DNA of 42,236 nucleotides from Deltaproteobacteria bacterium (lineage in GTDB: Bacteria; Desulfobacterota; Anaeroferrophillalia; Anaeroferrophillales; Tharpellaceae), in the NCBI GenBank assembly GCA_030633185.1, contig DAOVTG010000002.1, forward strand, positions 1-42,236, read 5' to 3'. The notes beneath the pieces were generated by a model, which worked only from the letters and a program-made list of their open reading frames with translations, did no database searches and had not been told where the DNA came from. Made by a program: the position numbers and the translations under genes. Shown here piece by piece: positions 1,311 to 39,529 of this stretch; within the stretch, counting starts at the first letter, position 1; every line of letters begins with the position of its first letter.

Positions 1311-2255
1311 TTACTCCTCAAGTTGGGCTAAAATACCTGCGACCAGCAGGGGAAACATGATTTCGTGGTGGCCGATGAGTTGGTAGCCCTGGCCGCTGCC
1401 CATGGTCGGGCGTTTGACAACATTTTCAAAAGGTCGATAGTGGCGGTTGAAATCCATGTTGACGGTGGTCAGGTTATCAACTTTATGGCCGAGGTTGCGG
1501 GCCAGTGAGATGGCTTTGAGAAAAACCTCGGGCAGGATTACGGCTGAACCAAGATTGATGTAGACGCCGCCTTCAAGTTGCGCTACCAGACCGCAAAACT
1601 TGTCGAAATCCTTAAAACTGGAGCGGCCGATAGCCGCTCCATCGGCGGCCGCATGCATATGGATGATATCGGTACCGATGGCGACATGGACGGTGACCGG
1701 GATCTGCATTCGGTAGCATTGTCCTAAAAGGCTCATTTCTCGATTCGGTAGTTTCTCTTCCCAGATCATCCGGCCGACGGCGGCTCCTAAGCCGAGTCCT
1801 TCCCGGTCTCCCAATAAAATTGCCCGGTTTAAAAGTTCTCCGGTCTCCTGAGCCATGCCGAAATCGCCGCCGGTGATTCCAGCAGCGACCTCTTCGGAGG
1901 TATGGCCGGCATAAGCCAGTTCGAAATCATGAATAATCCCGGCCCCATTTAAGGCAATACCATTCAGTATCCCTTTTTCAACCAGTTGTAAAATTAATGG
2001 GGTCAGGCCGACCTTGATGACATGGGCCCCCATGCCGAGCAGGATCGAGCGTTGTTGCCGGAAGGCTGTGATGATGGCACTGATGATGTTTTTCAGGTCA
2101 TCGGCTGCGAGAAAACCGGGCAGTTTGTCAAGCAGGTCGCCAACTCTCTCTCTTCCGGTCAGTTTTCCGGCGAAATGGTTGATGCTGACTTTACTCGGGC
2201 GCGATGCCAGAGGGTAGGTGCCCAATTTTTTTTTGTCGAGTTCAATATTGTCCAT
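1311..2255 (-). CDS. Deoxyhypusine synthase-like family protein (function unknown)
   Basis: The track ORF 1311..2393 is over-extended into the upstream gene. I start at MDNIELDKK (ATG 2253-2255), 1 nt after the upstream stop. The segment LLGMGAHVIKVGLTPLILQLVEKGILNGIALNGAGIIHDFELAY matches the DHS-family pattern as I remember it. Confidence 0.55.
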   Translation of the reverse strand: MDNIELDKKKLGTYPLASRPSKVSINHFAGKLTGRERVGDLLDKLPGFLAADDLKNIISAIITAFRQQRSILLGMGAHVIKVGLTPLILQLVEKGILNGIALNGAGIIHDFELAYAGHTSEEVAAGITGGDFGMAQETGELLNRAILLGDREGLGLGAAVGRMIWEEKLPNREMSLLGQCYRMQIPVTVHVAIGTDIIHMHAAADGAAIGRSSFKDFDKFCGLVAQLEGGVYINLGSAVILPEVFLKAISLARNLGHKVDNLTTVNMDFNRHYRPFENVVKRPTMGSGQGYQLIGHHEIMFPLLVAGILAQLEE

Positions 2256-2256
2256 T

Positions 2257-2841
2257 TTACGAGGCCATCTCTTTTTCGACCAGGCAGCAGAGCAGGTGAC
2301 CCAGGAGGAGGTGAACCTCCTGGATACGGGCCGTGTCGGTAGCTGGCACCAGCAGGGCGATATCGCAGAGTTTAAGGCAGTCGCCGCCGTCACGACCGAG
2401 CAGGCCGATGGTCGTCATTTTCAGCTCTCGGGCCTGTTTTAAGCCAGCCGTAATATTTGCCGAAGTTCCGCTAGTGCTAAGGGCTATGGCAATGTCGCCG
2501 GCCCGGCCGAGGCCTTCAAGCTGACGGACAAAAAGTTCGCTAAAGGAGTAGTCGTTGGCGATTGAGGTAACCACTGCGGAGTCACAAGTCAAGGCCAGGG
2601 CCGCCAGCGGCCGCCGGTCAAGCAGGAAACGATTGATCAGTTCGGCTGCCAGATGCTGGGCCTGGGTGGCACTGCCGCCATTGCCGAAGAAGAGGATTTT
2701 TTTGCCCTCTTTCAAGGCTGTGCAGCAGGTTTTTACAGCCTTATCTAGAGCCGGGCCGCAGTCATTGCAAACGCTTGTCAATAACTCCTGTAATTGGGCC
2801 GCCGCTTCATTTAATGGGGTAAATGTCTGTTTGTTATCCAT
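2257..2841 (-). CDS. SIS-domain protein (phosphoheptose isomerase GmhA / DiaA-like)
   Basis: FFGNGGSATQAQHLAAEL...IALSTSGTSANI...LLGRDGG is the GmhA/DiaA SIS signature. Start trimmed to MDNKQTF (ATG 2839-2841). Confidence 0.75.
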   Translation of the reverse strand: MDNKQTFTPLNEAAAQLQELLTSVCNDCGPALDKAVKTCCTALKEGKKILFFGNGGSATQAQHLAAELINRFLLDRRPLAALALTCDSAVVTSIANDYSFSELFVRQLEGLGRAGDIAIALSTSGTSANITAGLKQARELKMTTIGLLGRDGGDCLKLCDIALLVPATDTARIQEVHLLLGHLLCCLVEKEMAS

Positions 2842-3802: not shown

Positions 3803-4085
3803 TTTGCTTCGCCCTGCTTCGCGTGGGGACAGGCTGCGGGTAGTTATTGGTTGTTTGTAGATCTTGACACTGTAATATTTTCTAAATGTTGGTTACACCC
3901 GTAAAACCCTGTCCCCGCATTGAGGTGGGGCGGGGTAAAAACCCGGGCCTTTTACCGAGCCTCCGACCGGCGGGGACTGGGTCTTGCGGCTATAACCGAC
4001 AATCAATAGCCAATGTAGTGTCAAACCGCAACGTTAACCAAGCTTTACCCGCAGCCTGTCCCCACGCGAAGCAGGGCGAAGCAAA
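3803..4085. repeat. Inverted dimer of the intergenic repeat unit, with perfect 40-bp terminal inverted repeats flanking 203 bp
   Basis: 3803-3842 (TTTGCTTCGCCCTGCTTCGCGTGGGGACAGGCTGCGGGTA) is the exact reverse complement of 4046-4085. The interior is an imperfect palindrome; both halves carry TTGGTT, TTGACACT and a GGGGAC./TGTCCCC pair (3825-3831/3910-3916 and 3973-3979/4057-4063). Confidence 0.85.
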
Positions 4086-20578: not shown

Positions 20579-21913
20579 TTAGTGAGAGACCAGATTAAGG
20601 TCATCTTCAAAGGAGAACTCCGGGTCGGTGTTTGCGGTGTGGCAGATGGTGCAGGTTGAAGCTTCGATTTTCAGGCCATAAGGGAGTTCTGGTTCCTTGA
20701 TATGTTCCTCGGCCGGGCCGTGGCACTCTTCGCACTGGATGTTAAAGAGGTCAGGGGTCGCTGATGGTGAACGAAAACCTTGTTTGTCGTGTTCCCGGCT
20801 GCCGGTGACGTGGCAGGGCAGGCAGTCAGGGCAGAAGTCTTTGCACTTTTTCTGGAGGCTGGCGTAGGCCCGGGCATGTCCGGTGTTTTTCCATGAGGCC
20901 GAGATCTTGGGATGGCAGGTAGTGCAGGTATGGATGCTGACATAGGGGACTTTAGCCGTCAGATCAGTCACAGTTCGCTCTTTGCTTTTTTCCACTTCAA
21001 CATAGTGCTGTCGCAGCCAAAGTTCATGGTCGCTGACTAGATTGGCAATCTTCTGATCGGCTTTATAGAGCTCTTTCTTGACCTTGACGATTTTGGCATT
21101 GGTTGGGGCTTTGGCCGTAAAATCCCAATCCAGGTAGCCGATGGTTTTGCCGTGGTTGTTATTTTTGACCAGCCAGCAGCCGTTGATAAGTTCACTCTCT
21201 TTCATTGTGCCTCGCTGGGTGCCCAGGATCGCGACATCGAGGCCGCTAATCCGGCGGATGAGACGGCGGGCCTTGGTATCGGAAAAATGGAGAACTGCAA
21301 CGGCCAGGTCGTGCGGCGTCTCAAGAATTTTTTTCAGAGTTGAAAGCGGGTCTTTGATTTGCAGGCCGTGAATCGCTTTTTTCTCAAGATCCGGATCGAT
21401 GATTGCGGTAATCAGCACCTTCTTATTATTGATGGTAAAAACTTTGTGGGTTTCGAATCCCGGGATCGGCAGCCCGTCCAAGTTGCCGCAAAGGATGGTA
21501 CTATTGGGGGCATTCTTTTTTAGCGAGCTCATCATCTGGCGTCCGTAAATCAGCTCTTGAGCACCCGGGGTGAAGATCTCAGTGCCGATAAGTTCATAGC
21601 CTTCAAGGGCGGTTTTGAGAGCTTGGCGTTTAACCTCGAAGTCATTTTTAGAGGTTCTTTTGGTCAGGTTGCCACAGTTGATAAACAGGCTCTTTCCCGG
21701 GTCGGCATCGCGGCGCAGAATATCAATGGCTGTTTTCTGACGGGCCAGACCGCCCGCCTGTTTTTTGTGTCAACCGCAGAGTTTGACATAGCCGGAGAGA
21801 GAGCCTATATAGATGAGGCGAAAATCAGACCCCTCAGCCCGGCAGCCGGCGGGGAAAAGCAGGTTGAGGGAAAAGCCGATAAAGGTGAAAAACAGCAAGA
21901 AAACTTTTGTCAT
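20579..21913 (-). CDS. Candidate selenoprotein: lipoprotein-type signal peptide, degenerate 5'-nucleotidase/metallophosphoesterase-like domain with Cys-Gly-Sec, and a C-terminal tetrahaem cytochrome c (in-frame TGA at 21770-21772 read as Sec, codon 48)
   Basis: The track ORF 20579..21535 carries four CXXCH motifs (CTTCH, CLPCH, CEECH, CTICH) but has no signal peptide or SD. The same frame stays open upstream to ATG 21911-21913 (AAGGA 7 nt upstream), apart from one TGA. The extension reads MTKVFLLFFTFIGFSLNLLFPAGCRAEGSDFRLIYIGSLSGYVKLCG-U-HKKQAGGLARQKTAIDILRRDADPGKSLFINCGNL... A SECIS-like hairpin follows the TGA. Confidence 0.6.
21739..21758 (-). promoter_or_regulatory. SECIS-like hairpin 11 nt downstream of the in-frame UGA
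   Basis: The mRNA reads UGA-CACAAAAAACA-GGCGGGC-GGUCUG-GCCCGUC: a 7-bp stem (six Watson-Crick pairs plus one G.U) and a 6-nt loop containing GGU. Spacing and loop resemble the E. coli fdhF SECIS as I recall it (UGA, 11 nt, then GGUUGCAGGUCUGCACC). Confidence 0.55.
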
Positions 21914-22037
21914 TTCCGGTTCCTTAATTATTAATGGTAATTTCGAATTGTCTAATCCTAACCGAATGGCTCAGGTTTATCAAGAAAATTTTTATTTTGT
22001 TTTTAAAACTATCAAAAGGTGATGCATTCGTAAAAAG

Positions 22038-38939: not shown

Positions 38940-39173
38940 ATGCAGCAGGCAAAATTCAGTGTAAGAGAGGTTCAAGTACATTTTTTAGATGATTTTAGAA
39001 CTTATGGGTTTAAGGACAAAAGTTCTATGCTCCGAAAAGCCATTGACAATTTCAAAAATATGTTAGAGCTTGAAAGCCTGAGAAAATCTGCTGATTTATA
39101 TTCTGATTTATATTCTGAAAATGATAATCTTAAAGAATTGACGGAAACTGCCATAACCGGGTGGCCCGAATGA
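38940..39173 (+). CDS. Type II antitoxin (ribbon-helix-helix-like, MazE/CopG-type)
   Basis: 77 aa from ATG 38940 (GGGGG ribosome-binding site 5 nt upstream). Its position and the ATGA stop/start overlap with the downstream MazF-family gene support the call. The acidic C-terminal half is typical of antitoxins. Confidence 0.65.
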   Translation: MQQAKFSVREVQVHFLDDFRTYGFKDKSSMLRKAIDNFKNMLELESLRKSADLYSDLYSENDNLKELTETAITGWPE

Positions 39174-39529
39174 CAACCTTGATAAGGGGGATGATTATTG
39201 ATGTAAATCTCGATCCCACACAAGGTTCAGAAACAGGTAAAGTCAGACCATGTATAATTGTGACCAACAATGTTTACAATCAAAGAGTTCCGGTTGTTCA
39301 GGTTGTTCCCATTACTGAATGGAGTGCCAAAAAAATACGGATAAAAACTAATGTTGAAATCGATTCTTCAAAAGATAATGGCCTATCAAAAAAATCTGTA
39401 GCGGATTGCTTGCAAACTCGGCCCATTGATCATCGTCATAGGATGGTAAAAATTCGTGGGAAATTGTCATCATCCAAGATAGAAGAAATAGATCAAGCTT
39501 TAAGGGTTGTTTTTGAGCTTGATTTGTAA
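39170..39529 (+). CDS. mazF: MazF/PemK-family type II toxin endoribonuclease
   Basis: 119 aa from ATG 39170. The stretch RGMIIDVNLDPTQGSETGKVRPCIIVTNN...VVQVVPIT...V.DCLQTRPID is the PemK/MazF signature. Confidence 0.85.
   Translation: MTTLIRGMIIDVNLDPTQGSETGKVRPCIIVTNNVYNQRVPVVQVVPITEWSAKKIRIKTNVEIDSSKDNGLSKKSVADCLQTRPIDHRHRMVKIRGKLSSSKIEEIDQALRVVFELDL

Follow-up and report, generated by a model that had tools for sequence, protein, structure and literature searches.

An exported selenoprotein with a metal-less 5'-nucleotidase fold, a Cys-Gly-Sec loop and four haem-attachment sites, from a divergent clade of the UshA-like (seleno)protein family

What does a protein do that is built like a 5'-nucleotidase, lacks the metal site of one, and carries a Cys-Gly-selenocysteine loop in its first domain and four haem-attachment sites in its tail? 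The question is raised by a gene in a 42,236-nucleotide stretch of DNA from a Deltaproteobacteria bacterium (assembly GCA_030633185.1, contig DAOVTG010000002.1, positions 1 to 42,236 of the forward strand; hereafter the window), which a preliminary description, made from the sequence alone, had tentatively read as a periplasmic lipoprotein redox enzyme with a degenerate 5'-nucleotidase-like fold. The gene lies at 20579-21913 on the minus strand and is a single gene of 444 codons including that for selenocysteine (Sec) 48; it runs from an ATG at 21913 to a TAA at 20581-20579 with one TGA in frame (21772-21770), which translation places at codon 48, and full-length collinear homologues are found at nine genome loci and at a further locus, L010. 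The interval emphasised in the preliminary description (21150-21913) corresponds to the N-terminal domain part of this gene. Read through the TGA, the product of 444 residues consists of a signal peptide, the segment F31-RLIYIGSLSGYVKL-C46-G47-U48-HKKQAGGLARQKT, about 240 more residues of the N-terminal domain (N-domain), a long helix, and the haem tail, and translation recovers the numbering of Cys46 and Sec48 that had been given. The gene product is an exported selenoprotein that combines a metal-less nucleotidase fold, a near-invariant Cys/Sec loop, and four haem-attachment sites.

The Cys46-Gly47-Sec48 motif (21770-21778, minus strand, the TGA occupying 21770-21772) keeps its TGA in Sec forms and reads CGC in Cys forms. 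All 22 Sec-form DNAs (21 loci and the window) retain the TGA. At the nine genome loci, where the homologues are 63-80% identical to the window protein over the post-Sec part, the TGA stands at the same codon and is preceded by FRLIYIGSLSGYV[KN]LCG, and C-G-TGA is found also in remoter relatives, namely L010 (49% identity), L013 and L014 (~32%), and L012, a typical member of the NCBIfam family NF041198. Among the ten close sequences, codon differences are mostly synonymous both in the 20 codons upstream of the TGA (191 synonymous versus 113 non-synonymous) and in the 20 codons downstream (279 versus 155), so the frame is translated across the TGA, and by this measure the flanking codons are under purifying selection. 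A metagenome scan returned 40 full-length matches, nine with TGA and 31 with TGC or TGT at the Sec position, and in a larger alignment all 114 full-length Cys-form proteins read C-G-C. Selenocysteine is confined to the second chalcogen position of the motif, the first never being Sec. Two homologues, each a single sequence in which a sequencing error is possible, depart from this motif: one from a metagenome (L028, about 3990-4000) reads P-A-G-U, with Sec and no partner Cys, and another (L068) reads C-D-C in place of C-G-C.

The RNA that follows the UGA is in keeping with recoding. Folding predicts a selenocysteine insertion sequence (SECIS) hairpin that begins 11 nucleotides past the UGA, with a 7-bp stem and the loop GGUCUG (21739-21758, minus strand). 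Over 16 Sec-form sequences, 92.9% of the cells of the stem are paired and five of its seven pairs show compensatory changes on both sides, and none of the slid stem registers comes near this one. Of 21 Sec forms, 14 have the loop sequence GGUCU, as opposed to none of 29 Cys forms, though G-G-L is encoded in both; ten of these 21 Sec forms are close relatives, so the counts overstate independence, and at least five separate lineages share the motif. In its GGUC it resembles the SECIS loop of Escherichia coli fdhF. The fold energy of the region by itself is unexceptional (z = -0.57) and shows no difference between Sec and Cys forms, and an Rfam scan returned no match anywhere in the window, the SECIS included; the case for a SECIS is therefore made by covariation and loop sequence, not by fold energy. 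Taken with the conserved TGA and the presence of Cys at the same position in homologues, the covarying hairpin bears out the earlier suggestion that the Cys-Gly-Sec triplet contains a genuine selenocysteine. The apical loop of the hairpin is written by the codons of the conserved Gly-Gly-Leu, which are GGC-GGU-CUG in Sec forms and never so in Cys forms, the same stretch serving protein and RNA. Among the open reading frames (ORFs) of the window that were scanned, no Pfam match to Sec-machinery families was obtained, and no tRNA was found in the window.

The N-domain (residues 28-286; 21056-21832, minus strand) was assigned to the calcineurin-like fold of 5'-nucleotidases by profile searches against the PDB, by alignment to UshA, and by AlphaFold modelling followed by Foldseek. 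A single-sequence search of the PDB finds UshA at an E value of about 1 only, and a family profile is needed for a clear match. A profile of 23 N-domain sequences matches snake-venom 5'-nucleotidases at E 1.8e-38, CD73 at about 1e-34, UshA at about 1e-31, and SoxB at about 1e-22; searched with the N-domain family profile, the real E. coli UshA sequence (L094) matches at E 2.4e-35. The NCBIfam models for 5'-nucleotidase, SoxB, and UshA give weak matches over residues 50-297, far below their cut-offs. The AlphaFold model of window residues 49-444 has a predicted local distance difference test score (pLDDT) of 93.2 and a predicted template modelling score (pTM) of 0.87, that of a full-length Cys-form relative a pLDDT of 91.0 and a pTM of 0.89, and for both the best Foldseek matches are 5'-nucleotidases and SoxB, the window model reaching 3ivd, 2ush, and SoxB at E 1e-13 to 1e-11 (top 4e-13). 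Profile search and Foldseek thus agree on the 5'-nucleotidase/calcineurin-like fold that had been proposed.

The metal site was compared by aligning the real E. coli UshA sequence with 51 family members. The window protein keeps one of the seven metal ligands of UshA, His217 (window H209), and at the six other ligand positions Asp41 has become S38, His43 S40, Asp84 N82, Asn116 A118, His252 T232, and Gln254 R234; the catalytic His/Asp pair is lost as well, His117 being replaced by Q119 and Asp120 by I122, and Asn141, the Asn of the SANI motif, corresponds to window N144. Not one of the 51 relatives has the full set of ligands, and what stands at the ligand positions varies freely, so the loss of the ligands is old and family-wide. 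The preliminary description had drawn its correspondences to UshA motif by motif, and all of them are reproduced in this alignment, including the loss of the dimetal site and a loop about three residues longer than that of UshA (13 residues versus 10, counted from the Gly of motif I to the GL of GLAxQKT). On these alignments the N-domain is not a nucleotidase, its dimetal phosphoesterase centre having been lost.

Conservation within the N-domain is concentrated elsewhere. Family-wide, the near-fixed positions are C-G-[C/U], together with the Gly that precedes its loop and the G-G that follows it, the motif II Gly, and the SANI Asn. Of these, C-G-[C/U] is conserved best, and the residue before its Cys is P, N, L or V. 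The Cys-Gly-Sec loop comes directly after the first beta-strand, in the segment that follows the first metal-binding motif in real 5'-nucleotidases, and on sequence grounds it is the only plausible functional centre of the N-domain. A second UshA-like Sec family model, NF049981, is also matched; its 262 positions are too few to span the haem region, a length which suggests that the N-domain with its Cys/Sec motif constitutes an independent module. In the profile alignment, snake-venom 5'-nucleotidases have a C-x5-C pair in the same loop after motif I in which C-G-[C/U] is found here. The pair is shared by CD73, where it forms a disulfide.

The N-domain is followed by a long linker helix (residues 287-314; 20972-21055, minus strand; helix 239-266 of the AlphaFold model of the post-Sec part), which is located as the inter-domain helix of 5'-nucleotidases is, and the Foldseek alignments span about 300 columns. 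Its length and position suggest that it is the counterpart of that helix, and from the secondary structure and the Foldseek span the haem module seems to take the place of the nucleotide-binding domain. Pfam detects nothing in the window protein besides Cytochrome_C554, and no C-terminal nucleotide-binding domain. The tail itself (residues 315-444; 20582-20971, minus strand) was described from the outset as a cytochrome c554-like tetrahaem domain, and this is borne out: it scores 44.4 bits against Pfam PF13435 Cytochrome_C554, with a cut-off of 20.8, it matches cytochrome c554 (1bvb) at E 1e-6 and OcwA (6i5b) at E 1e-9 in the PDB, and its four CXXCH motifs, at residues 330, 364, 394, and 421 (20912-20926, 20810-20824, 20720-20734, and 20639-20653, respectively), are invariant in alignments of 118 and 127 sequences. 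The only conserved His residues of the haem domain outside these motifs are H346, H404, and the C-terminal H444, and the domain has not a single Met. With three such His for four haems and no Met, one haem would be left without a conventional sixth ligand, and from the alignment and the ligation in c554 this open haem would be the second, C364-L-P-C-H. The c554 module has been described as containing a penta-coordinated haem (PMC9250108). Directly before the second haem motif stands an extra Cys pair, C357-K-D-F-C361 (20831-20845, minus strand), which is present in the eight clade rows of alignment A1 and absent from the other three rows; relatives of ~49% identity carry it as CKDYC. This pair could be a second redox-active dithiol beside the haem that lacks a distal His.

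Proteins of this kind are already known. 'UshA-like protein, CxU' is listed among prokaryotic selenoproteins in reviews of selenoproteomes (PMC13188914, PMC9312934), and in the Global Ocean Sampling (GOS) survey 'COG0737, UshA-like' was represented by 76 Sec and 92 Cys forms (PMC2398784). The review of 2022 gives the accession WP_013162925.1 as an example. This protein is probably from Desulfurivibrio alkaliphilus. The best NCBIfam match of the window protein is NF041198, 'UshA-like (seleno)protein' (UshA_like_PCGU), an equivalog model of 519 positions that includes the haem tail, with window residues 300-436 aligning to its positions 378-519. The score of 188.7 bits (E 1.6e-55) is below the curated cut-off of 275, as are those of the controls L010 (218), L013 (210), and the Gimesia Cys form P0162 (221), the controls L012 (598), L023 (361), L033 (360), and P0053 (381) passing it. 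On these sequence matches the window protein belongs to a divergent clade of the UshA-like (seleno)protein family, marked by Leu before the motif (L-C-G-U), a short linker, and the extra CKDFC pair. The clade yielded no Cys form, L001-L010 all having TGA and the 49 close database proteins starting past it; most sampled members of the family have Cys in place of Sec. The family is large, with 2,383 clusters at 50% identity matching the profile at E ≤ 1e-30 and at least 843 clusters at 90% identity at E ≤ 1e-10, and its source names include Gimesia (Planctomycetota), Blastocatellia, Gammaproteobacteria, and Deltaproteobacteria; Blastocatellia belong to the Acidobacteria. The close homologues come from metagenome-assembled genomes (MAGs) labelled Thermodesulfobacteriota, Deltaproteobacteria, Pseudomonadota or Ca. 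Tharpella aukensis, and none is labelled Desulfuromonadales, the order across which the preliminary description had proposed to survey the architecture; the lineage is thus not demonstrably of that order. In databases the relatives go by such names as 'multiheme c-type cytochrome', 'Cytochrome c-554 precursor', '5'-nucleotidase', or 'hypothetical protein', and since all 49 close entries (P0001-P0049) begin past the TGA, their signal peptide and Cys-Gly-Sec loop are hidden.

The protein is exported by a signal peptide (about residues 1-27; 21833-21913, minus strand), a hydrophobic N-terminus being present in all homologues and the position of cleavage being predicted. The preliminary description was right as to export; its proposal of a lipoprotein has been rejected, the lipobox Cys being missing from eight of the ten close sequences. 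Cys24 is present in two of them (the window and L002), and the other eight read AASRA, AGSQA, and similar. Cleavage is probably by signal peptidase I, after a site of the A-x-A type, and to judge from these N-termini a soluble periplasmic protein is more likely than a lipoprotein.

What such a protein may do in the periplasm follows from what its N-domain has lost and kept. A family-wide dead phosphoesterase site moves the search for function from nucleotide hydrolysis to redox chemistry, and a redox role is reasonable because at the motif position Sec alternates with Cys only, and no feature of the N-domain is conserved as well as C-G-[C/U]. We regard it as rather probable that the protein is a periplasmic haem-fed Cys/Sec oxidoreductase and a member of the divergent clade of the UshA-like (seleno)protein family. 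Of the earlier proposal of a periplasmic redox enzyme in place of a nucleotidase, the loss of the nucleotidase site stands, and the redox role may reasonably be deduced from the alternation of Sec and Cys. In such an enzyme, electrons from the periplasmic cytochrome pool would pass through the four haems to a selenenylsulfide/selenolate couple formed by Cys46 and Sec48, Sec48 would attack, as the nucleophile, a small chalcogen substrate (the S-S bond of a polysulfide or disulfide, a peroxide, or selenite), and Cys46 would resolve the intermediate. A chalcogen substrate is the best guess by analogy, since MccSep reduces polysulfide and selenite. Several observations weigh against this picture of a Cys/Sec oxidoreductase. 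The conserved neighbours of the gene are all housekeeping genes, none pointing to a pathway; the P-A-G-U homologue implies that an obligatory Cys-Sec couple is not universal; and since some of the groups that carry Cys forms (Gimesia, Blastocatellia, Gammaproteobacteria) are aerobes, sulfur respiration alone is unlikely to be the role of the entire family. A more specific arrangement, to which we give little credence, is that the inactive nucleotidase domain has taken on the role of a lid, which places the Cys-Gly-Sec loop in the distal pocket of the open haem of the c554 module. If this were true, the protein would contain a haem-selenium/sulfur centre analogous to that of the polysulfide reductase MccSep and evolved independently of it, and its family, which comprises more than 2,000 sequence clusters, would represent a class of periplasmic haem-chalcogen enzymes that has gone unrecognised. 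The literature searched yielded no function or mechanism for this large exported family and nothing on a fusion of nucleotidase and multihaem or c554 domains, a preprint on domain grafting in multihaem cytochromes included.

The chief alternative to a haem-fed Cys/Sec centre moves catalysis to the second haem (C364-L-P-C-H), which would have no distal ligand from the protein. The Cys-Gly-Sec loop would extend into its distal pocket, where Cys46 or Sec48 would either ligate the iron, in the manner of the His/Cys haems of MccSep, TsdA, and SoxAX, or act beside it. Three conserved non-motif His for four haems, with no Met in the haem domain, would suit such a site, as would the fixed domain interface suggested by the pTM of 0.87-0.89 in the models. 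The tail moreover aligns to c554 and OcwA, the c554 module carries a penta-coordinated haem (PMC9250108), and a Cys-ligated haem and Sec are combined in MccSep (PMC13510729). However, the choice of the open haem depends on the ligation in c554 and on sequence alignment, and the shortness of NF049981, which does not reach the haem region, suggests that the N-domain can work without haems; catalysis at the haem is for these reasons doubtful, though it deserves to be kept in mind. C-G-[C/U] could also bind a non-haem metal or cluster in place of serving as a free thiol/selenol couple, be it an iron-sulfur cluster at a dimer interface or Cu(I) as in the haem-copper site of the sulfite reductase MccA, where cysteines hold the copper. 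Two invariant chalcogen ligands two residues apart would be apt for this, the clade adds a Cys pair next to haem II, and MccA belongs to the same group of cytochromes with a c554 module (PMC9250108). Yet C-x-C provides too few ligands, no further conserved ligand is found across the family, the extra pair is specific to the clade, and one homologue reads A-G-U, all of which makes metal binding improbable.

Equally improbable is a protein that serves in electron transfer only, its N-domain being structural or a docking surface and C-G-[C/U] a structural bridge like the C-x5-C of the CD73 type. Two Cys in the same loop of snake-venom 5'-nucleotidases offer a precedent, and no substrate-binding residues can be named in the window protein, but structural bridges are not made with Sec, whose insertion is costly, the alternation of Sec and Cys is confined to one exact position, the SECIS being kept in several lineages, and C-G-[C/U] is better conserved than anything else in the N-domain. 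The fold, together with the weak NCBIfam matches to the 5'-nucleotidase, UshA, and SoxB models, might still recommend a UshA- or SoxB-type phosphoesterase or thiosulfohydrolase whose site is unconventional; however, six of the seven metal ligands have given way to other residues, as have both catalytic residues, the replacements are not themselves conserved, the C-terminal substrate domain is absent, and the models are matched far below their cut-offs, so that we consider hydrolysis very improbable indeed. A negligible probability attaches to the reading in which the TGA terminates translation and the locus is a pseudogene or a pair of separate genes: gene callers start past the TGA in 49 of 49 close database entries, but the frame, the signal peptide, and strong amino-acid conservation with mostly synonymous change span the TGA in ten sequences, the SECIS covaries, and homologues have Cys at the same position. 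The pseudogene was rejected on the conserved coding on both sides of the TGA in those ten sequences.

The surroundings of the gene are of an ordinary kind. It stands alone, in convergent orientation to the gene of an AMP-dependent ligase and in divergent orientation to uvrA, and a consensus scan, by which alone it was sought, places a weak candidate sigma-70-like promoter just upstream of the start codon (TAGACA, a 16-nucleotide spacer, and AATAAT; 21927-21954, minus strand; 10 of 12 matches). The order secA-argJ-ligase-[gene]-uvrA-rex-proB is kept in close relatives and partly in L010 (49% identity), the neighbouring proteins being 77-94% identical in close relatives as against 63-80% for the selenoprotein. 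No redox partner is encoded near the gene, and the window otherwise holds housekeeping genes. In distant Cys forms, a same-strand gene for a DUF4159 protein and one for a protein of about 900 residues without a Pfam match precede the gene at two loci, and a same-strand gene for a DUF1573 protein precedes it at two others (L037, 178-3832; L053, 436-3752; L021, 2275-3858; L042, 2250-3863, for the loci with upstream DUF4159 or DUF1573 genes); these upstream neighbours form no recognisable pathway. Elsewhere in the window, a MazF/PemK-like toxin ORF (39161-39529, plus strand) lies beside a RadC-like gene, and an ORF encoding 360 residues without a Pfam match (1311-2393, minus strand) lies between proC and a group of genes for a SIS-domain protein and MqnA/MqnD-like proteins of the futalosine pathway.

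Set beside known systems, the window protein is closest to the NF041198 family, with which it shares the UshA-like domain and four-haem tail, the C-G-U/C after the first strand, the loss of the metal ligands, and the existence of Sec and Cys forms. It differs from that family in having Leu for Pro before the motif, a length of 444 residues versus about 520-555, which reflects a shorter linker, and the extra C-x3-C pair before haem II. With 5'-nucleotidases of the UshA/CD73 type and SoxB it has in common the fold of the N-domain, the order of the motifs, the SANI Asn, the GL-x-x-QK start of a helix, and the long helix after the domain, at about 19% identity to UshA over 269 aligned residues; unlike them, it lacks the dimetal ligands and the catalytic dyad, and a tetrahaem domain replaces the nucleotide-binding domain. 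Nitrosomonas c554 (1bvb/1ft5) and OcwA (6i5b) share the module of four haems and align with the window protein at its first three CXXCH motifs and at the first of the conserved distal His, whereas the window protein is fused to a large non-haem domain, has the clade-specific Cys pair, and scores 30 bits against NF043010, with a cut-off of 400. The functional model for the window protein is MccSep, the one protein in which the joint action of Sec and c-type haems has been characterised. MccSep/ExtKL of Geobacter sulfurreducens (PDB 9wt8) has Sec next to a Cys-ligated haem and reduces polysulfide and selenite (PMC13510729), and this work of 2026 supplies ready assays in the form of methyl-viologen-linked polysulfide and selenite reduction. 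Like the window protein, MccSep is a periplasmic multihaem c-type cytochrome with one Sec, which in MccSep is essential for catalysis. The two nonetheless belong to unrelated families (NF040886 gives 17.6 bits versus a cut-off of 250, and the PDB match, at E 0.0055, covers the haem region only), and MccSep has five haems, with its Sec inside the cytochrome domain and no nucleotidase-like domain, in contrast to the four haems of the window protein and the Sec that it carries in a nucleotidase fold.

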